A stretch of 30,097 nt of DNA, taken from positions 1 to 30,097 of the forward strand of contig DATJPP010000018.1 in the NCBI GenBank assembly GCA_035506355.1. The letters run 5' to 3'. This document shows positions 5,155-13,683 of this stretch, piece by piece; within the stretch, counting starts at the first letter, position 1, and each line of letters starts with the position of its first letter. The DNA comes from Candidatus Margulisiibacteriota bacterium. GTDB taxonomy: Bacteria; Omnitrophota; Gorgyraeia; Gygaellales; Profunditerraquicolaceae. Made by a program: the position numbers and the translations under genes. The notes under the pieces are model-generated. The model was not told where the DNA came from, did no database searches, and worked only from the letters and a program-made list of their open reading frames with translations.

Positions 5155-7029
5155 TTAAGGTTTTATTTTTACCTCGACCATGCCGCGTACAGAATTACAG
5201 AGGTATACCTTATCGGCAGACTCAACTTCCTTTAAGCCTATCACCTTTTCTGTGACCAGCTTAGACTTAAGTAAATAAGCACGGAATATACCCGGCAATA
5301 ATCCTGAAGAAAGCGCAGGCGTGTAATACTTGCCTCTTGATTGGATGATTATATTAGAAAAAGAACCCTCGGTAAACTCATTTCTGCTATTAAGAAACGC
5401 TACTTCATAGTAGCCCTTTCTCCGGTAATAGGCATATTCTGAATCATATAAAGCGCGGTTAGTGGTCTTATGATAAAGCCAGATCCCGGCAGGGTCTAAT
5501 TTCTTTTTTGAAAGAATAACCAGCTTCTCCAGATGAGACGGGTCATCTTTAAGGAGAGAATACTCTACTCTGAACTTGCCATTTTTCCCCAACAAGAGTC
5601 TTATTTTATACCTTTCGTTTCCTAAGAACTTCTTCTCCGTGCATTTTAAAGAAGAAACGATCTCCCGGGGTTGAGAATAGAAATCAAAATATTCTGCGGA
5701 GCGGGCTATTCTACGCAAGTGTTCCTCCAGGAACCGGTACCCTTTTTCCCAGAGGATGGTCTCTATCAGGGAAAACTCCTTTGTTCTTTCAACGAGGAAT
5801 TTGGCCTTGAGGGAACACTCCTGGAATTCCTTATTTGGCAGGGAATCTATAACTATCCCCGAACCTACCCCCATCTCCGCTTTATTTCCGGAAAGAGATA
5901 TGGTCCTGATGGGCAAGTTGAATACTGCCCTGCCTTGAGGCCTGATTATCCCTAAGGCCCCGCAATAGACTTTCCTATACCCACGCTCTAATTCCCGTAT
6001 AATGCGCATAGAGCTTATCTTGGGGGCACCAGTGACCGAGCCCCCCGGGAAAATGCTTCTGAAGATATCAAGGTAAGTCGTGCCCTTTCTTAAGGTCCCT
6101 TTCACTGTAGAAGTAAGCTGAAATAAAGTATTATATTTCTCAACGGAAAAAAGCCCGGCCGTCCTGATACTGGAGACCCGGCAAACCCTCCCCAAATCAT
6201 TGCGGATTAAGTCTACGATCATCAGGTTTTCTGCCGTATCCTTAACGCTTCTTTTAAGCTGTGCTATCTGTTCTTTATCCTCTTCGATATCCCTCCCCCT
6301 TGCGATAGTGCCCTTTATTGGTCTTGAATATATCCTCTCTTTATCCTTCCTGAAATATAACTCGGGTGACAAAGAAATAACATAGTCGTCCTTAAATTTG
6401 CAAAATGATCCATAAGGCGTGTTCTGATTAAGCTTTAAATCCTGATAGAGCGATAAGGGAGAGCCGGAGAGATCAAACTGGTATTTACCTGTAAAATTGA
6501 CTTGGTAGGTCGAGCCTTTGCGTATATAGCTCTTTATCCTGGCTAATTTCCTAAGGTAGAGGGGTCTCGTAAAATTAAGGCGCAGGTTATCCAGACGGTA
6601 TTGCCTACCGGACCATTCGCCCTTAGCGAAAAGCCCGGGCAATTTAATATCCGTTCTTCCGGTCTTGTGGTTGAAGGTCACCGCCCTGTCAAAGACGCAC
6701 AACCGGATTAAGGGAGAGGGGTAAGATGCCGGGAGATTAAAAATCCCTTTCTCAAAATAATATCCTAATTCATAGGCAAAATATCCGGCAATATAATACT
6801 TCAGCGAGTATTTCTCTATTTTTTCAAAAGCCTCTTCCACGCGGCAGAAATTCCTGACTTCAATTATATCAATAGGTTTTGAGAAAATAAAGCTCTTGTA
6901 ATTCTCTCTGTCATAGAGGCTGCTCTCAAAAAGCAGGAAATACTCCTGTTTTTTTATATACTCCGGGTTGAGAGCAGGCAATTCAAGATGTCTTTTAACC
7001 ATATTGCTTTGGCGCTTCTTTCTTACCAT
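5155..7029 (-). CDS. pabB: Aminodeoxychorismate synthase component I fused to a class IV aminotransferase-like ADC lyase (PabB-PabC)
   Basis: SLSPELY, RPIKGT, ENLMIVDLIRNDLGR, FPGGSVTGAPK, YCGALG and GVGSGIV. The C-terminal part has LIETILW, HLRRI, HKTTNR.LY, EGSFSN, GLLPGIFR and CNSVRG. Alternative start at ATG 7002. Confidence 0.9.
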   Translation of the reverse strand: MVRKKRQSNMVKRHLELPALNPEYIKKQEYFLLFESSLYDRENYKSFIFSKPIDIIEVRNFCRVEEAFEKIEKYSLKYYIAGYFAYELGYYFEKGIFNLPASYPSPLIRLCVFDRAVTFNHKTGRTDIKLPGLFAKGEWSGRQYRLDNLRLNFTRPLYLRKLARIKSYIRKGSTYQVNFTGKYQFDLSGSPLSLYQDLKLNQNTPYGSFCKFKDDYVISLSPELYFRKDKERIYSRPIKGTIARGRDIEEDKEQIAQLKRSVKDTAENLMIVDLIRNDLGRVCRVSSIRTAGLFSVEKYNTLFQLTSTVKGTLRKGTTYLDIFRSIFPGGSVTGAPKISSMRIIRELERGYRKVYCGALGIIRPQGRAVFNLPIRTISLSGNKAEMGVGSGIVIDSLPNKEFQECSLKAKFLVERTKEFSLIETILWEKGYRFLEEHLRRIARSAEYFDFYSQPREIVSSLKCTEKKFLGNERYKIRLLLGKNGKFRVEYSLLKDDPSHLEKLVILSKKKLDPAGIWLYHKTTNRALYDSEYAYYRRKGYYEVAFLNSRNEFTEGSFSNIIIQSRGKYYTPALSSGLLPGIFRAYLLKSKLVTEKVIGLKEVESADKVYLCNSVRGMVEVKIKP

Positions 7030-8804
7030 TCAAACCTAAGACCGGACTTAACCCACCTGCCTGGCTGGAGGACCCCCCCTACTTCAGAATATTCCGTATT
7101 GCTGAAATTGTCAATTCTTAAGAAGGGCTCAAAACTAAATGACCGTCTTATTACCTTTCTTGAAATACAGAGGTTTCCTACAAAATATGTCTCACCGTAA
7201 TGCCTTTGATTATAACTTAATTCCCAACTTAGTTTATTCCCCCAAAAGGAGGAATCGATATCCATGACAAGGTGGTCCCTGAGTATATCCAGGGCGTATT
7301 TAGATAAGAAACCTGTTTCTTCCCTGACTAAGGTATTATGCGCATAAGAGAAGGAAAGCTTATCCAGGGTTACCCCCTTTAAATGGAATGCCGGATAAAA
7401 TCCGGAACTAAATTCTATACCTCGGATATCCGTTCTCCCCAGGTTAGTTGCCTGCCAGCGTTCATTGCTTGATGCGCGCGTCCAGTCTATTAAATTTCTT
7501 CCTCTCCTGTAGAAAAAATCTATGCTTAAATCCACCTGTTCCTGCCTTAAGGCAATACCCAACCCTGCATTCTCGGACTCTTCTATCCCAAGCCCGGGGT
7601 TCCCCTGGTTCCCTGCATCCGAATAATACAGTTCGGTAAAGCTCGGAAGCCTGAAGGCATACGCCAGGGATGATTTTACCTGAAGCATATTATTTAAAAG
7701 ATAACCCAAACCGATATTCCAGGAAGGCTGAAGGCCCCATTTCCGGAAATTATCTACCCTTGAGTTTATATTGACATTGAACCTTTCCCCAAAATCAGGC
7801 AGAAGTCCTGCTTTTAAACCTTCCTGCAGGCGCGAATGTTTCCCCAGATTCGTAGAATTGATCTCTTCTTCGGTAAGAGATAGCCCTAGGGATAAATCCC
7901 CTGCTCTTAAGGGAAAGGCAAAATCGGAATTTAATCCGTATACATAGGTGGTATGGTAATTAACCGAAACGGGATTATTCCTGTCCAGGATGAATTTATC
8001 TTCGTGCCGGCGCAGGTAAAGGCTGTTCTCGCAAGAGCCATCTTCTTTTTTTACGGAGAGCCCGGTTTTAAAGAGGAGCGTTCTGGTATGCTCCTCCTCC
8101 GCGGGGAAGAGGTTGGAATAAAAGCTGTCTGCGCCAAAATCATTTTTTTGAAAAGAGAGAAGGGTATTAAGGCCCAAGCCCCCCTCATCCTTGCCCAGGA
8201 ATAAGGAGGTAGTGCTAGAATCAAAATCCGTATTGGAGGTACCTCCGTTGGAGGATTTATGAGCGTAGGAAAACCTGCCGAAATATTCTTTGTGCGGCAA
8301 GCTTAAAGAGAGGCCTTCGCTGAATAAGGCATGTTCGCCGAAAGCGCTGCTTAGGCTGAATTTCCTGGTATCGGCCTTCCTGGTAATGATATTTACGCTT
8401 CCGGCAAAGGCCCCGGAGCCGTAAAGGGATGTTGCGCCTTCTTTTGTAACCTCAATCTTTTCTATATCCGCAGGAGTTAAGGGTATATCCAGGTTATAAT
8501 GCCCGCTCTGGGGGTCGTTAATCTTTAATCCATCCAGTAACACGGCAACCTGTTCAAAGGTCGAGCCTCTTAAGGAGATATCGGACTGCATACCCACAGC
8601 TCCCCGGGTGCGCAGGTCCAGACCGGCTATATTATCCAATTCTTCGCTAAAGGCTAATATGCCGCTGCCTTCCAAATCTTTGCGGCTGATACCTCCGGAT
8701 GCCCTGTTGCTCTCGTTCTTCACTACGATCCTCTCCAGAGAGAAGGGCTCGGAGAAACAGGTGCCCGGCAGAATCAAGAGTAAGATGAATGTAATCAACC
8801 ACAT
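7023..8804 (-). CDS. TonB-dependent outer-membrane receptor (BtuB-like size, substrate unknown)
   Basis: Signal peptide, TonB-box-like LERIVV, plug motifs ISLRG...LLDG..INDPQSGH and IEKIEVTKEGATSLYGSGAFAGSVNIITRK, FRLPSFTELY/GNPGL, and C-terminal GLRFEW. Confidence 0.93.
   Translation of the reverse strand: MWLITFILLLILPGTCFSEPFSLERIVVKNESNRASGGISRKDLEGSGILAFSEELDNIAGLDLRTRGAVGMQSDISLRGSTFEQVAVLLDGLKINDPQSGHYNLDIPLTPADIEKIEVTKEGATSLYGSGAFAGSVNIITRKADTRKFSLSSAFGEHALFSEGLSLSLPHKEYFGRFSYAHKSSNGGTSNTDFDSSTTSLFLGKDEGGLGLNTLLSFQKNDFGADSFYSNLFPAEEEHTRTLLFKTGLSVKKEDGSCENSLYLRRHEDKFILDRNNPVSVNYHTTYVYGLNSDFAFPLRAGDLSLGLSLTEEEINSTNLGKHSRLQEGLKAGLLPDFGERFNVNINSRVDNFRKWGLQPSWNIGLGYLLNNMLQVKSSLAYAFRLPSFTELYYSDAGNQGNPGLGIEESENAGLGIALRQEQVDLSIDFFYRRGRNLIDWTRASSNERWQATNLGRTDIRGIEFSSGFYPAFHLKGVTLDKLSFSYAHNTLVREETGFLSKYALDILRDHLVMDIDSSFWGNKLSWELSYNQRHYGETYFVGNLCISRKVIRRSFSFEPFLRIDNFSNTEYSEVGGVLQPGRWVKSGLRFEW
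7086..7114 (-). promoter_or_regulatory. Candidate internal sigma70 promoter for pabBC and downstream genes
   Basis: TTGACA(7114-7109)-N17-TATTCT(7091-7086) inside the 3' end of the receptor gene, about 55 nt upstream of the pabBC start. Confidence 0.45.
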
Positions 8805-8820
8805 GGTATTTCCGGCAATA

Positions 8821-8855
8821 AAAAACCCGACATCTAATTATATAGTTGCCGGGTT
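8821..8855 (-). terminator. Intrinsic terminator-like hairpin ending the sulfur/birA transcript
   Basis: Minus strand AACCCGGCA-A-CTA-TATAAT-TAG-A-TGTCGGGTT. The last two T's of the stem start a TTTTTATT run. Confidence 0.6.
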
Positions 8856-8864
8856 AATTGTCAA
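8837..8864 (-). promoter_or_regulatory. sigma70 promoter of the TonB-dependent receptor
   Basis: Perfect TTGACA(8864-8859)-N16-TATAAT(8842-8837), 32 nt upstream of ATG 8804. Confidence 0.8.
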
Positions 8865-8890
8865 CCAAATTGAAATTATAAGTTTACATT
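8857..8890. promoter_or_regulatory. BirA (biotin repressor) operator
   Basis: ATTGTCAAC-N16-GTTTACATT matches the known BirA consensus wwTGTtAAC-N14-16-GTTaACAww. It lies 6 nt after the birA stop and overlaps the -35 box. Confidence 0.75.
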
Positions 8891-8896
8891 TCTGCC

Positions 8897-9850
8897 TTAA
8901 CGGCAGTGCACTACATCCCCCGCCATAACCTTTGCGGTCAAACCTGAATCCTTCCTTACCAAGAGCCCTCCGTCAGTGTCGATATCCACGGCCTCCCCTT
9001 CCACCTCCTGTTTCTGACAGCAGACCCTGATCCTCCTGCCTAAGGTAATACTGTATTCCCGCCATCCTTTGAGGACCTGTTCCTCCCCCTTCTCCAGTGA
9101 CAGATAGTTTTCTTCAATCTTACGCAGTATCTCCTGCAGCAGAGGGACGCGGCTTAAATGCTCCTTCTTATGCTCCTTGAGGGATGTTGCCGAGGGCGGA
9201 AGCGACTTTTTATCGTTATTTACGTTGAGACCAAGGCCGATGACCACAAAATTTATCTTATCCGTCTCGGCATTAAGCTCGGTCAATATACCACCCAGCT
9301 TCTTATCTTTAAGTAAAATATCGTTGGGCCATTTTATCTTTGCCTCCATTGAAAGCGTCGAGCCAATAGCCTCGCAGGTACTCACTGCGGCAAGCAGGGT
9401 AAGTATGGACGCCTGGGCGGGGAGCATCTTTGGTTTTAAGATCAGGGATAAATATATCCCCTTGTGCTTCGCAGATACCCAGCTCCTACCAATCCTCCCC
9501 CTCCCCCTGGTCTGTTGTTCGGATAAGACTAGGGTTCCTTCGGGAGCGCCTTTCAACCCCAGCTCCCAGGCGGTATCCATGGTCGAAGGTAGGGATTCAA
9601 AATAATATATCTTCTTCCCGATGAATTTGGTTCCTAATCCGTGGGCTACTTCAAAATCAAAGAGCCTATCCGCCGAAGAGATAAGCTGGTAACCCAGATG
9701 CGGAACGGCGATTATCTCATACCCTTTTTCTTTAAGCTCCTGGATATGTTTCCATAAGGCCTGCCTGCTTATGTCGAGTTTCTGGCTAAGCTGGTCTCCG
9801 GAAATATAGCCTTCTTTGCGCTTCAATAAATCCAGAATCTTATCCTGCAT
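8897..9850 (-). CDS. birA: Bifunctional biotin-[acetyl-CoA-carboxylase] ligase / biotin repressor (group II, with HTH)
   Basis: N-terminal wHTH (ISGDQLSQKLDISRQALWKHIQEL), EQQTRGRGRIGRSW, KWPND, KKLGGIL, GLGLNVN and SH3-like C-terminus. Confidence 0.97.
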   Translation of the reverse strand: MQDKILDLLKRKEGYISGDQLSQKLDISRQALWKHIQELKEKGYEIIAVPHLGYQLISSADRLFDFEVAHGLGTKFIGKKIYYFESLPSTMDTAWELGLKGAPEGTLVLSEQQTRGRGRIGRSWVSAKHKGIYLSLILKPKMLPAQASILTLLAAVSTCEAIGSTLSMEAKIKWPNDILLKDKKLGGILTELNAETDKINFVVIGLGLNVNNDKKSLPPSATSLKEHKKEHLSRVPLLQEILRKIEENYLSLEKGEEQVLKGWREYSITLGRRIRVCCQKQEVEGEAVDIDTDGGLLVRKDSGLTAKVMAGDVVHCR

Positions 9851-9852
9851 CT

Positions 9853-11016
9853 TTATTTCTTTTCGTAAAGGGGAGACATGGCGCGCAGCCTCTCGGTTAC
9901 CTGAGGCAAATGTTCCAAAAGGGAATCGATATCCTCGGGTTTAGTCCACCTGCCCATAGTTATCCTTATTGAGCCATGGGCAAGTTCATGCGTGAGGCCG
10001 GTAGCCAAAAGGACATGCGAAGGCTCCAAAGATGAAGAGGTGCAGGCGGAGCCGGTAGAAACGGCAATCCCTGCCATATCCAGGCTTAAAAGGATGGATT
10101 CTCCTTCGATGTATTTTATGGAAAAATTAACATTATTTGGCAATCTCTTGGTAGGGTGACCGTTAAGATGAATCTCGGGGATCCTTTCGGGGAGTTCTCT
10201 GATTAATCTATCGCGCAGAACGCCTTGGAATTTCGCCTCTTCTGCCATTTTACCCCTGCACAATTCGACAGCCTTACCCAAACCTACTATCCCGGGAGTA
10301 TTATGCGTTGAGGCCCTCCGGTTATTCTCCTGATCTCCTCCGTGCATGAGCCTCTCAAGGCGTACTCCCTTGCGTACATAGAGAGCGCCTACACCCTTAG
10401 GCCCGTAGAACTTATGCGCGGAGAGCGATAACAAATCTACGTTCAAGTCATCCACATCGATAGGTATATGTCCGACGGTCTGCACCGCATCAGTGTGAAA
10501 ATAAATCCCCTTCTCCCTGGCAATGTTACCGATCTCTTTAATCGGCTGTATTGTGCCTATTTCGTTATTGGCGTGCATAACACTGATCAATACGGTCTTA
10601 TCGGTGATCGCCCTCTTTATATCGTCGGCAGAGACTAGTCCATATTTATCTACTCCCACGAAAGTCACCTTAAAGCCGTTTTTCTCCAGATATTTGCACG
10701 GCTCACTGATAGCATGATGCTCAATGGCGGTAGTAATGATGTGGTTACCTTTCTGCTGCATTATCTGGGCAACGCCTTTTATCGCCAGGTTATCCGATTC
10801 TGTGCCGCCGGATGTAAATATTATCTCCTGCGGCTTGGCCCCCAGGAAATTTGCTACAGAATCCCGGCTATCCTCAACCGCTCCTTTGGCTTCCTGCCCA
10901 AAGGCGTGCAGGCTTGAGGCATTACCGAACCTTTCGAAGAAATACGGCTCCATCGCCTTGAGCACCTCGGGGTCGCAGGGCGCAGTCGCCGCATAATCCA
11001 GATATATATTTTTCAT
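9853..11016 (-). CDS. nifS: Cysteine desulfurase (NifS/IscS)
   Basis: IYLDYAAT, FTSGGTESDN, HTDAVQ, SAHKFYGPKG (PLP Lys) and STGSACTS (catalytic Cys). Confidence 0.96.
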   Translation of the reverse strand: MKNIYLDYAATAPCDPEVLKAMEPYFFERFGNASSLHAFGQEAKGAVEDSRDSVANFLGAKPQEIIFTSGGTESDNLAIKGVAQIMQQKGNHIITTAIEHHAISEPCKYLEKNGFKVTFVGVDKYGLVSADDIKRAITDKTVLISVMHANNEIGTIQPIKEIGNIAREKGIYFHTDAVQTVGHIPIDVDDLNVDLLSLSAHKFYGPKGVGALYVRKGVRLERLMHGGDQENNRRASTHNTPGIVGLGKAVELCRGKMAEEAKFQGVLRDRLIRELPERIPEIHLNGHPTKRLPNNVNFSIKYIEGESILLSLDMAGIAVSTGSACTSSSLEPSHVLLATGLTHELAHGSIRITMGRWTKPEDIDSLLEHLPQVTERLRAMSPLYEKK

Positions 11017-11816
11017 CTGATCACCTCATTTATACTCCCGCTGCGGAAACCTTCCAGATCCAGCGTCACATAATTATAGCCTAATTTTTTCATTTTGTCG
11101 ACAACCTGCTCTCTAAACTTCAGAAAAAGCGGGATTTCTTCTTTCAAAACCTCTATCCGGCATAGCGCTTGATAATCCCTGACTCTAGCCTGCATAAAAC
11201 CTAGTTTCCCTAGGAGGGACTCTGCCTCTTCAATGCGCCTCAAGAGCCTTAAAGTTATCTTCCTGCCGTAGGGCACCCTGGAGGCAAGGCAGGCCTGGCT
11301 TGCCTTATTCCAGGTCAACAACCCTAATTTCTTGCTAAGTTTCCGTATATCTTCCTTGCTAAGAAGGGCCTCTTTAAGCGGCGAGCGCACTTTCAGTTCG
11401 TTTAAGGCCCTTCTACCCGGGCGGTAATCAGAATCATCTGAAATATTGCTGGCATCTACGACCACCTTAAGGCCTTCCCGGGAAGCAATTTTCTTTAGTT
11501 TCTTAAAGAGTCCTAACTTACAAAAATAACAGCGTTCAATTGGATTTGAGGTAAACCTTCTGTCTTTCAGCTCCTGCGTATTAACCACCCTGTGCCTGAC
11601 CTTTAAACCCTGCGTAATGCTCCGTGAGAAAACCAGCTCTTTCTTCGGATAGGTGGCCGAATTAGCGGTCACGGCGAGCAACTTCTCCCTGGGCAATACC
11701 AGCGATGCCACCTTTAAAAGAAAGGTGCTGTCTAGCCCGCCTGAGAATGCCACAAGGCAGGAGCCGTAACCGGAAATTATTTTCTTGAGACTCGATATTT
11801 TTTGCTCCGGAGTCAT
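11013..11816 (-). CDS. larE: ATP-dependent sulfur transferase, LarE family
   Basis: VAFSGGLDS PP-loop, RCYFCK, DYRPG, SPL, SQACLASRVPYG, RVR and YVTLDLEGFRSGS. Confidence 0.9.
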   Translation of the reverse strand: MTPEQKISSLKKIISGYGSCLVAFSGGLDSTFLLKVASLVLPREKLLAVTANSATYPKKELVFSRSITQGLKVRHRVVNTQELKDRRFTSNPIERCYFCKLGLFKKLKKIASREGLKVVVDASNISDDSDYRPGRRALNELKVRSPLKEALLSKEDIRKLSKKLGLLTWNKASQACLASRVPYGRKITLRLLRRIEEAESLLGKLGFMQARVRDYQALCRIEVLKEEIPLFLKFREQVVDKMKKLGYNYVTLDLEGFRSGSINEVIR

Positions 11817-11819
11817 CTT

Positions 11820-12227
11820 CTAAAAATGCACTTCCATGGCCCGGGTGGGACAGATCTTCACGCAGAGTTCGCAGGCAATGCATTTGTTATCGTAAAAATG
11901 AACCTTGCGGGTATGCTGATCGACCACCAGGGCATTAGTAGGGCATATAGGAACACAAACACCGCAATCAGTACATTTGCTCTCATTGCGTATTACATCC
12001 TGGCTTAAGGGCTGAATCCTCACCCCGCAGGACTGTAGATAATCTATCCCTTTGTTAAAATTATCGTCTTTCCCCTTAAGCTCAAGGACCATCAGCCCTT
12101 CTTCCTGGGGCGTGACATAAGCCTTAAGTATATTGAACTGCAGGTCATACTCCTTGACCAACTTATAGACTATAGGCTGGTCTACCAGGCGGTTGGGAAA
12201 ATGCAAAACTATTCTTTTTGAGGTCAT
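11820..12227 (-). CDS. NIL domain + 2x[4Fe-4S] ferredoxin (MA1822-like subunit of aspartate-semialdehyde sulfurtransferase)
   Basis: NIL motif (YDLQFNILKA), followed by CTDCGVCVPICP and CIACELCVKICP. Adjacent to the MA1821-like gene. Confidence 0.88.
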   Translation of the reverse strand: MTSKRIVLHFPNRLVDQPIVYKLVKEYDLQFNILKAYVTPQEEGLMVLELKGKDDNFNKGIDYLQSCGVRIQPLSQDVIRNESKCTDCGVCVPICPTNALVVDQHTRKVHFYDNKCIACELCVKICPTRAMEVHF

Positions 12228-12239
12228 CTTACTTTCTCC

Positions 12240-13442
12240 CTAACTAATTGGCCTTTCTTTTAACGGCTTAAAAGTATACCCGGAATCTGCTCCAGGGAGG
12301 CTTGCGACTGCTTCCGTGAGCAGAAATTCTCCCTTTTTAATCCAGGCCTTAAGCTCTTCGGCAATCTCACGCGCTTTGGAATAACTGGAGAGGTTACCCG
12401 TCGGAACATCCTTCCCCTGCACTGAAACCTTGCCGGTCTTTAGTTGCGCGTAATTAGCTTCCCCCAGAGAACCGGGGACGCATTGAGGATAATTTGCGCT
12501 GTAATCTACTATCTGCGTATACAATTCCTCGTCTCTTGCCGCGGCATTTTTGAGGATCTCTTCATCCAGTATCGGTATGGGGACTCCTATCCCCACAATC
12601 AGGGTTACTCCATAACCAAGCATGCTCGTCCCCACCAACCATTCCGCCCTCATCTGTTTTAGGTCCCCGATCACTGCCAATGTCCCTGCGGGAGCCTGCG
12701 GGACTCCATTAGGCTTCCTGGGCACCGAAGGATTGTGCTGGGTGCCTTGCCAGGCAACATAGCCAACGCCGCCTCCCAGGAATATCTTCGTACCAATACC
12801 TATGGTCTTAAGGTAAGGGTCTTTCAAAAGCGGTGAAAGCTGTCCGGCAGAACAGTAATTGGCATTACCTAATTTCGGCTTCAACGCGCCCATATAAGTA
12901 TAGATCATCTTATCAGAGAGGTTCACCGCGATATTGTAATTCTGATAGCAATTACGGATATTAAATAAGACTGCCTCGTTCATACCCTGCAGATTAACCC
13001 AGCTCTCCAGTTTCTTTCTGGGATAGCAGTCCGTCCCGTAAGCGGTCGCTTCCAAGCGTATATCCTTACCTGCCACGAGTTCCTGGATCACGTGTGCCCC
13101 GCCGTATTTAAACTCGCCCGGATAAACCTTATTCCGGGGGTCATCATCCGGTATGGCGGTGGCACCCAGGTAAATATCCACTGCCGCAAACCCGGTATAA
13201 ACAGGCACATCATTAAGCTTGCAGACGCCGCCTCCAAGTTTTATCCTGGGCTTGGAATGGCCGATATTAAAATATGCGCCCGATGAACACATCGGGCCGA
13301 AGGTCCCGGTAGTAACCACATCTATCTCTTCCGCCGCCTTCTTGCTCCCCTTCTTATTTACCAGGTCAATTACTTCCTCGGCAGTCACTACCACTGCCTG
13401 ACCCTTTTTTATCTTTTCATTTATCTCTTTTATGCTTTTCAT
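12240..13442 (-). CDS. Homocysteine biosynthesis protein (MA1821/DUF39 family, L-aspartate semialdehyde sulfurtransferase), no CBS domain
   Basis: EINEKIKKGQAVVVTAEE, DVVTTGTFGPMCSSG, YGTDCYP, RNCYQNY, YTYMG, GQLSPLLKDP and GTQHNP. Start moved to ATG 13442 after GGGGGTG. Confidence 0.88.
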   Translation of the reverse strand: MKSIKEINEKIKKGQAVVVTAEEVIDLVNKKGSKKAAEEIDVVTTGTFGPMCSSGAYFNIGHSKPRIKLGGGVCKLNDVPVYTGFAAVDIYLGATAIPDDDPRNKVYPGEFKYGGAHVIQELVAGKDIRLEATAYGTDCYPRKKLESWVNLQGMNEAVLFNIRNCYQNYNIAVNLSDKMIYTYMGALKPKLGNANYCSAGQLSPLLKDPYLKTIGIGTKIFLGGGVGYVAWQGTQHNPSVPRKPNGVPQAPAGTLAVIGDLKQMRAEWLVGTSMLGYGVTLIVGIGVPIPILDEEILKNAAARDEELYTQIVDYSANYPQCVPGSLGEANYAQLKTGKVSVQGKDVPTGNLSSYSKAREIAEELKAWIKKGEFLLTEAVASLPGADSGYTFKPLKERPIS

Positions 13443-13461
13443 TAATTTAACACCCCCCTTA

Positions 13462-13683
13462 CTATAACGCAACTACCTCTTTAACCTCCGGGATTTCCTG
13501 TTTTAGGATCCTTTCAATACCCATCTTAAGGGTCATTGAGCTCATCGGGCAACATCCGCAGGTACCGGTAAGTTTCAGCTTTACCACTCCCTCTTTGGTT
13601 ACATCTACTAATTCCACGTTTCCGCCGTCAGCGGCAAGCATCGGACGTACCTTCTCCAAAGCCTTCTCAACCTTCTCTCTCAT
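13462..13683 (-). CDS. Nfu/NifU C-terminal-type Fe-S carrier
   Basis: [36 protein letters not shown]. Confidence 0.92.

Follow-up and report, generated by a model that had tools for sequence, protein, structure and literature searches.

The birA-receptor boundary and its palindrome

We analyzed a stretch of DNA of 30,097 nucleotides (the window, by which we mean the whole stretch; contig DATJPP010000018.1 of assembly GCA_035506355.1, here C18), in which a palindrome between a birA gene and the gene of a TonB-dependent receptor had been proposed by a first-pass annotation to be an operator of the biotin repressor BirA. The assembly comprises 1.17 Mb and is 75% complete, the closest protein matches of the window are to metagenome-assembled genomes (MAGs) of Omnitrophota, and the runs listed for the DNA of the window are wetland DNA metagenomes, with none of RNA among them. 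All the genes around the palindrome lie on the minus strand and are transcribed in the order HcyBio-family gene, NIL-ferredoxin, LarE-like gene, nifS, birA, receptor, and pabB-pabC. The features at the boundary are as follows.

8897-9850, minus strand: birA, whose product is both biotin-protein ligase and repressor and has a winged helix-turn-helix (HTH) at its N-terminus; the gene closes the co-directional run and begins 2 nt after nifS
8857-8890: predicted BirA operator ATTGTCAAC-N16-GTTTACATT, with the core TGTCAAC-N16-GTTTACA at 8859-8888; the minus strand reads TGTAAAC-N16-GTTGACA
8859-8864, minus strand: -35 box TTGACA, within the receptor-proximal half-site GTTGACA (promoter scan)
8837-8842, minus strand: -10 box TATAAT, 16 nt past the -35 box (promoter scan)
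7023-8804, minus strand: TonB-dependent receptor of 593 aa, the proposed outer-membrane biotin importer

The palindrome lies where it had been claimed, and its surroundings were also read correctly in the first-pass annotation: the birA stop codon occupies 8897-8899 (minus strand), which leaves 6 nt to the palindrome, and the gap between birA and the receptor gene spans 92 nt (8805-8896). The promoter that had been called perfect (TTGACA-N16-TATAAT) scored 12/12 on the minus strand and was the sole perfect one in the region. With one mismatch allowed, TGTNAAC-N16-GTTNACA has one match in the window vs none in 100 shuffles. A genome-wide pattern search found a single exact TGTNAAC/GTTNACA palindrome (N12-18) across the 1.17-Mb assembly, and the next-best sites in the genome carry two mismatches and lie in unremarkable places. 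The predicted operator overlaps a core promoter element, as would be expected if its binding represses.

The two flanking proteins are of the kinds proposed. The BirA of the window matches HTH_11 (64.5 bits), BPL_LplA_LipB, and BPL_C in Pfam, exceeds the cut-off of birA_ligase in NCBIfam (210.8 bits), and carries the motifs GRGRIGRSW (GRGRxGRxW pattern) and KWPND. The receptor matches the Pfam families Plug and TonB_dep_Rec_b-barrel and contains the plug motif quoted for it; by inspection only, its N-terminus MWLITFILLLILPGTCFS reads as a signal peptide, followed by a TonB-box-like LERIVV, and its C-terminus ends in ...RFEW. Two other modes of control were considered and rejected, in agreement with the earlier statement that the gap shows neither a cobalamin riboswitch nor a Fur box: Rfam found no riboswitch in the window or near 15 Ignavibacteriota/Bacteroidota homologues of the receptor, and no Fur-box match in the gap rises above 10/19.

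Conservation of the site and its link to BirA

The palindrome had been expected to recur ahead of orthologous receptors, and a search of 60 relatives from the family and order of the window, most of which have the receptor, bore this out. Of 29 relatives' loci, 26 have a site with no or one mismatch and exactly N16 in the interval from birA to the receptor; of the other three, two show two mismatches and the third lacks a site. The site is kept both where the receptors have 45-52% identity and in a second group with 30-36%. Among 34 distinct receptor loci, the proximal half-site GTTGACA (-35 at 6/6) is found in 31 and an exact TATAAT 16-18 nt past the -35 box in 28. The exact motif occurs in 31 genomes among 61 relatives vs 3 for the reversed control, and 30 of these 31 hold one copy; the other (G023) holds two, one per receptor copy, and the BirA regulon here appears, by this pattern search, to be a single operator per genome. 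The two operator-receptor units of G023 lie on contigs C80 and C44 (L005, L059/L121), and their receptors are each ∼50% identical to that of the window and preceded by an exact site. In a sample of 401 genomes of the phylum, the exact motif was found in 136 vs ∼15 for the reversed control, concentrated in the class of the window and nearly absent from other classes.

A second set of 80 loci, drawn from species-representative genomes, has the site ahead of the receptor in nearly all Omnitrophota-type records, many without a nearby birA (L128, L130-132, L136, L138-145, L147, L157, and L178 lack an adjacent birA and keep the site). The site therefore goes with the receptor promoter rather than with birA, since it is kept where birA is not nearby. 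N16 and the overlap with the -35 box are both kept throughout the family and order and in most of the class.

The regulator is indicated by relatives that have retained biotin synthesis. In six relatives keeping biotin synthase, birA is followed by the same N16 motif and then by bioB (radical S-adenosylmethionine and BATS domains) and bioF (genomes G043, G048, G038, G013, G040, and G047; loci L042/L072, L041/L073, L063, L065, L071, and L074). Elsewhere, bioB directly follows nifS, with no birA and no motif there (family f7 and, in family f9, G044); the four BirA homologues found in f7 start at about residue 62-71 of the window BirA and hence lack the HTH, and G012 likewise has a BirA without HTH and no operator. 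The presence of the operator thus seems, from these genomes, to track the DNA-binding domain of BirA. E. coli bioO (sequence taken from NC_000913.3) has the same half-sites, with a spacer of 18 nt vs 16 nt here, and the N16 spacing is on this account specific to the lineage.

It is conceivable that the palindrome is no BirA site at all and is instead a chance by-product of a strong promoter beside a terminator, or is bound by some other regulator, and this would find some favor in the fact that one half-site is simply a G plus the TTGACA of the -35 box. We regard this as very improbable. Although no promoter role falls to the distal half-site TGTAAAC, it is conserved as well as the proximal one and stands at exactly 16 nt in dozens of loci; moreover, the half-sites equal those of bioO, the motif stands ahead of bioB in prototrophs and is gone where BirA has no HTH, and most motif-carrying genomes hold one copy. 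Comparative genomics, both by the conserved site at the receptor and by the same motif on bioB-bioF, gives strong support to the reading of the palindrome as an operator for the product of the adjacent upstream birA, a class II (HTH-bearing) BirA, and we infer that BirA binds and represses at the predicted operator.

The arrangement resembles the E. coli bioO/BirA system (bioA-bioBFCD) in the class II BirA with an N-terminal HTH, in the TGTAAAC/GTTTACA inverted repeat, and in the overlap of the operator with promoter elements; it differs in the spacer and in the target, which is a TonB-dependent receptor here and not biosynthesis genes or BioY. Rodionov, Mironov and Gelfand reportedly reconstructed BirA regulons by comparative genomics in 2002. 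Such comparative reconstructions of BirA regulons include fab genes in Desulfovibrionales (PMC5343134).

The association has a taxonomic boundary. About 25 homologues of the receptor from Ignavibacteriota, Bacteroidota, Rhodothermota, and Chlorobiota (within L148-L192) have ∼30% identity and form their own clade, with no BirA-type site, no bio neighbors, and no riboswitch (Rfam, 15 homologues). As the Ignavibacteriota, Bacteroidota, and Rhodothermota homologues have no BirA site or bio neighbors, we do not extend the biotin-receptor claim to them. A separate locus from a Syntrophobacter sp. MAG (L153, CAZNJP010000063.1; Thermodesulfobacteriota) carries in succession an HTH-bearing birA, a DUF1284 gene, and a homologous receptor of 593 aa, with TGTTAAC-type palindromes (one mismatch) at the start of birA and near the start of the receptor.

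Biotin supply, receptor fold and the proposed cargo

The gene content of the relatives connects the receptor with the acquisition of biotin. Counts were made in 61 genomes, with true bioB defined as a hit above the family cut-off and with the receptor class set by an E-value threshold chosen after the data were seen; the totals were 16 genomes with true bioB, 38 with the BirA-linked receptor (including one plug fragment beside birA), and 42 with BioY. The receptor and true bioB occur together in one genome (G030), the receptor alone in 37, bioB alone in 15, and neither in 8. The receptor and BioY occur together in 36 genomes, the receptor without BioY in 2, BioY without the receptor in 6, and neither in 17; BioY is thus present in 36 of the 38 receptor genomes vs 2 of the 16 bioB genomes. 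The two genes are also neighbors in several loci: bioY lies just downstream of the receptor in four (L118, L138, L139, and L144), is divergent from it with the site in between in L140, and in L187 follows the operator and promoter and precedes the receptor, the two genes overlapping by 4 nt. The window genome itself has AccB (BCCP), AccC (biotin carboxylase), and BioY, and none of bioB, bioD, and bioA reaches its family cut-off, an absence that is provisional because the assembly is 75% complete; judged from this gene content, it needs biotin and probably cannot make it. Papers on Omnitrophota describe biotin synthesis as patchy in the phylum.

With these observations in view, we consider it likely that holo-BirA represses the receptor when biotin is sufficient and that the derepressed receptor brings in biotin that BioY passes on through the inner membrane. 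With ample biotin, BirA would make biotinyl-5'-AMP, dimerize, and bind TGTAAAC-N16-GTTGACA, and this would shut off transcription of the receptor because the downstream half-site is the -35 box of a strong sigma-70-type promoter. Under biotin shortage, or with a build-up of apo-BCCP, the promoter would be free, and the cell would make a small, BtuB-sized TonB-dependent transporter that pulls biotin across the outer membrane with energy from ExbB-ExbD-TonB; constitutively expressed BioY would carry it on across the inner membrane. For the energizing machinery, the window genome has two ExbB-ExbD(/Tol-type) pairs and a contig-end fragment that matches TonB_2 (24.1 bits, above cut-off) and falls just below the cut-off of TonB_C.

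The first-pass annotation had left the cargo as biotin, dethiobiotin, biocytin, or a precursor. The link to biotin acquisition was supported indirectly, through the near-exclusion of bioB, the co-occurrence of BioY, and the bioY-receptor neighborhoods, and biotin is the substrate to which the gene content points; the dethiobiotin and precursor part became unlikely. Cargoes that contain or resemble biotin (biocytin or biotinylated peptides shed by a host or prey, biotin sulfoxide, and dethiobiotin) could also be placed under the control of BirA, whose regulation suits whatever is eventually turned into biotin. The usual cargo of TonB-dependent transporters is too large for porins, and Omnitrophota are thought to be host-dependent (PMC10066038). 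Nevertheless, we hold this to be unlikely. Dethiobiotin and earlier precursors need bioB, which is missing from 37 of the 38 receptor genomes, and are therefore unlikely substrates. Free biotin is the best fit to the operons of bioY with the receptor and to the tight co-occurrence with BioY, which transports free biotin.

The receptor protein itself was examined for its affinities. In an AlphaFold 2 model (predicted local distance difference test, pLDDT, 84), a plug sits inside a 22-strand barrel, and the model aligns with solved transporters at template modeling (TM) scores of 0.76-0.82; the best structural match is E. coli BtuB (TM 0.80, 17% identity), followed by Cir, ChuA, and PqqU. The sequence scores 130.2 bits against the BtuB equivalog TIGR01779 (cut-off 599.7), 80.2 bits against PRK10641 (cut-off 836), and 29 bits against the PqqU family (cut-off 1200), and is far under every curated family cut-off, those of BtuB and siderophore families included. 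The identification as BtuB, the vitamin B12 receptor equivalog, was rejected on this score and on the absence of a cobalamin riboswitch from the leader. Fold and sequence place the receptor among TonB-dependent transporters without identifying the cargo. The guess that automatic annotation would call it a B12 receptor proved apt: 'vitamin B12 transporter' is among the source names, as is 'iron complex outermembrane receptor protein'.

These affinities bear on a further explanation, in which BirA controls the receptor and the cargo is unrelated to biotin, e.g., fatty acids or dicarboxylates that offset weak carboxylation, or B12, haem, or iron. BirA regulons do reach genes other than bio genes, such as the fab genes of Desulfovibrionales (PMC5343134); in addition, the nearest fold is BtuB, the receptor is the sole Plug-domain gene of the 75%-complete assembly and might have to serve other needs, and pabB-pabC is apparently co-transcribed with it. 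We judge this explanation improbable, given that the receptor stands in the position that bioB-bioF occupies behind this operator in other genomes, tends to be absent where bioB is present and present where BioY is, scores far under the cut-offs of BtuB and siderophore families, and has neither a cobalamin riboswitch nor a Fur box. A cobalamin riboswitch does exist elsewhere in the genome: the only one lies at 816-1013 of contig C106 in G000 (L193; 65.5 bits), before a gene of the Diphthami_syn_2 family (PF01902). A DUF6580 membrane-protein gene stands on the other (upstream) side of this riboswitch, and no classical B12 transporter follows it.

Several points weigh against biotin import under BirA control. 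Biotin is small enough for ordinary porins, and an energized receptor is not obviously needed because porins could admit it. The fold of the model is closest to BtuB, and no biotin pocket is identifiable from the receptor sequence. The association of genes is also softer than its statistics, since the Fisher tests (p ∼1e-7 to 1e-8; p = 0.014 within family f1 alone) overstate independence, the genomes being kin and the receptor threshold post hoc, and G030 has the receptor and bioB both. The absence of bio genes from the window genome carries the reservation already given. Regulation does not cover the uptake route as a whole: no BirA site (one mismatch at most) precedes bioY in any of 30 bioY loci, that of the window genome included, and control by BirA therefore seems confined to the outer-membrane step, whereas bioY is the usual BirA target in other phyla. 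Finally, the receptor is probably co-transcribed with pabB-pabC, because the ATG of pabB-pabC overlaps the TGG-TAA end of the receptor gene by 7 nt (ATGGTAA, 7023-7029), and pabB-pabC has no known link to biotin.

Biotin import by the receptor has precedents in other vitamin systems. BtuB (E. coli 1NQE/1UJW; Bacteroides BtuB1-3) likewise has a plug within a small barrel of 22 strands, scavenges a vitamin at the outer membrane, and is repressed once that vitamin suffices, and such scavenging and repression are proposed for the receptor; the two differ in the low identity noted above and in the control, which is proposed here to reside in a biotin-sensing protein repressor and not in a cobalamin riboswitch, and no BtuG-like partner of the receptor was seen. 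PqqU (9C4O), which carries pyrroloquinoline quinone (PQQ) and is among the structural matches, differs in cargo and regulation. The Bacteroides thiamine receptor is a TonB-dependent transporter for a small cofactor. Together, PqqU and the thiamine receptor are a precedent for the energized uptake of porin-sized cofactors at trace concentrations. The BioY/ECF-type (energy-coupling factor) and YigM-type biotin transporters share the proposed role, i.e., biotin salvage in auxotrophs, and are inner-membrane proteins of unrelated folds. Models of biotin uptake go no further out than the inner membrane (BioY, YigM) and take biotin to diffuse through porins. We found no description in the full-text literature of a TonB-dependent receptor that is regulated by BirA or specific for biotin, nor in the literature of any outer-membrane biotin transporter. 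Both the regulator and the transporter architecture are known; the target and the presumed cargo are new.

On balance, and with some reserve, we favor the broader proposal that this is the first TonB-dependent biotin importer and that a single BirA operator has been re-used across the class, ahead of the bioB operon in prototrophs or ahead of the importer in auxotrophs, with an unrelated PF13557 outer-membrane barrel as a rare third solution in genomes with neither. If true, trace biotin is actively scavenged in the manner of B12, thiamine, and PQQ, biotin joins the cargoes of TonB-dependent transporters, and hundreds of automatic annotations ('vitamin B12 transporter', 'iron complex receptor') would be corrected. 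It would also give a molecular handle on the vitamin dependence of uncultured, possibly host-dependent Omnitrophota, which could help in their cultivation. The regulatory logic is simple, with one operator and one promoter, and is amenable to standard assays.

The PF13557 (Phenol_MetA_deg) outer-membrane beta-barrel gene is present in 4 of the 61 relatives (G003, G012, G026, and G029), all among the eight without bioB and receptor, and may be an alternative outer-membrane route. In G029 (L062/L201, contig C45), which has BioY and neither bioB nor receptor, the single exact BirA motif (1501-1530 of L062) overlaps the start codon of this barrel gene, and a TATAAT lies just upstream of the gene. 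A BirA site as a general feature of the barrel was rejected, as it is seen only in G029 and not in G003, G012, or G026.

Neighboring genes and the terminator hairpin

The remaining features of the locus flank the pair of birA and the receptor or lie within the gap, as listed below.

9853-13472, minus strand: sulfur-handling block of HcyBio (PF01837), NIL-domain ferredoxin, LarE-like sulfur transferase, and NifS, co-directional and upstream of birA
9853-11016, minus strand: nifS
8820-8855, minus strand: predicted intrinsic terminator of the nifS-birA transcript, with a GC-rich hairpin at 8824-8855 and a six-T run at 8820-8825
7086-7114, minus strand: candidate internal promoter TTGACA-N17-TATTCT in the 3' end of the receptor gene (promoter scan 10/12, consensus match only)
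5155-7029, minus strand: pabB-pabC fusion (aminodeoxychorismate synthase and lyase; Pfam Chorismate_bind and Aminotran_4)

The adjacency of nifS and birA is kept in most relatives. On the other side, pabB-pabC also lies 3' of the receptor in L015, L017, L020, and L126 and 5' of it in L139, L144, L147, L157, and L178; despite this recurrent proximity, no functional link between para-aminobenzoate (pABA) and biotin is evident. The candidate internal promoter might allow BirA-independent expression of pabB-pabC and thereby uncouple it from the receptor.

Neither the hairpin in the gap nor the overlap of the receptor gene with pabB-pabC had been mentioned in the first-pass annotation. The hairpin is situated between the -35 box and the start codon of the receptor, with the -10 box in its loop. 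As RNA, it folds at -16.6 kcal/mol (z = -4.2), and none of 200 shuffles was as stable. Hairpins that enclose the -10 box and are accompanied by T-runs, with differing arm sequences, are found in nearly all loci where birA is adjacent; the median folding energy is -15 kcal/mol with birA upstream vs -8.8 kcal/mol without, and loci that clearly lack birA fold at just -1 to -9 kcal/mol. This pattern is consistent with the hairpin being the terminator of the nifS-birA transcript, which would keep read-through out of the receptor promoter. As transcription of the receptor would start inside the 3' arm, the hairpin would be missing from the receptor mRNA; the receptor leader in the window is ∼30 nt. 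In two more distant receptor groups (30-37% identity; L015-L032, L138-L147, and L178), the ATG stands 6-7 nt past the -10 box, which suggests leaderless receptor mRNAs. Where birA is adjacent in these distant groups, the 3' arm of the terminator and the T-run fall within the signal-peptide codons (e.g., M-L-K-I-N-R-x-G-L-F-F).

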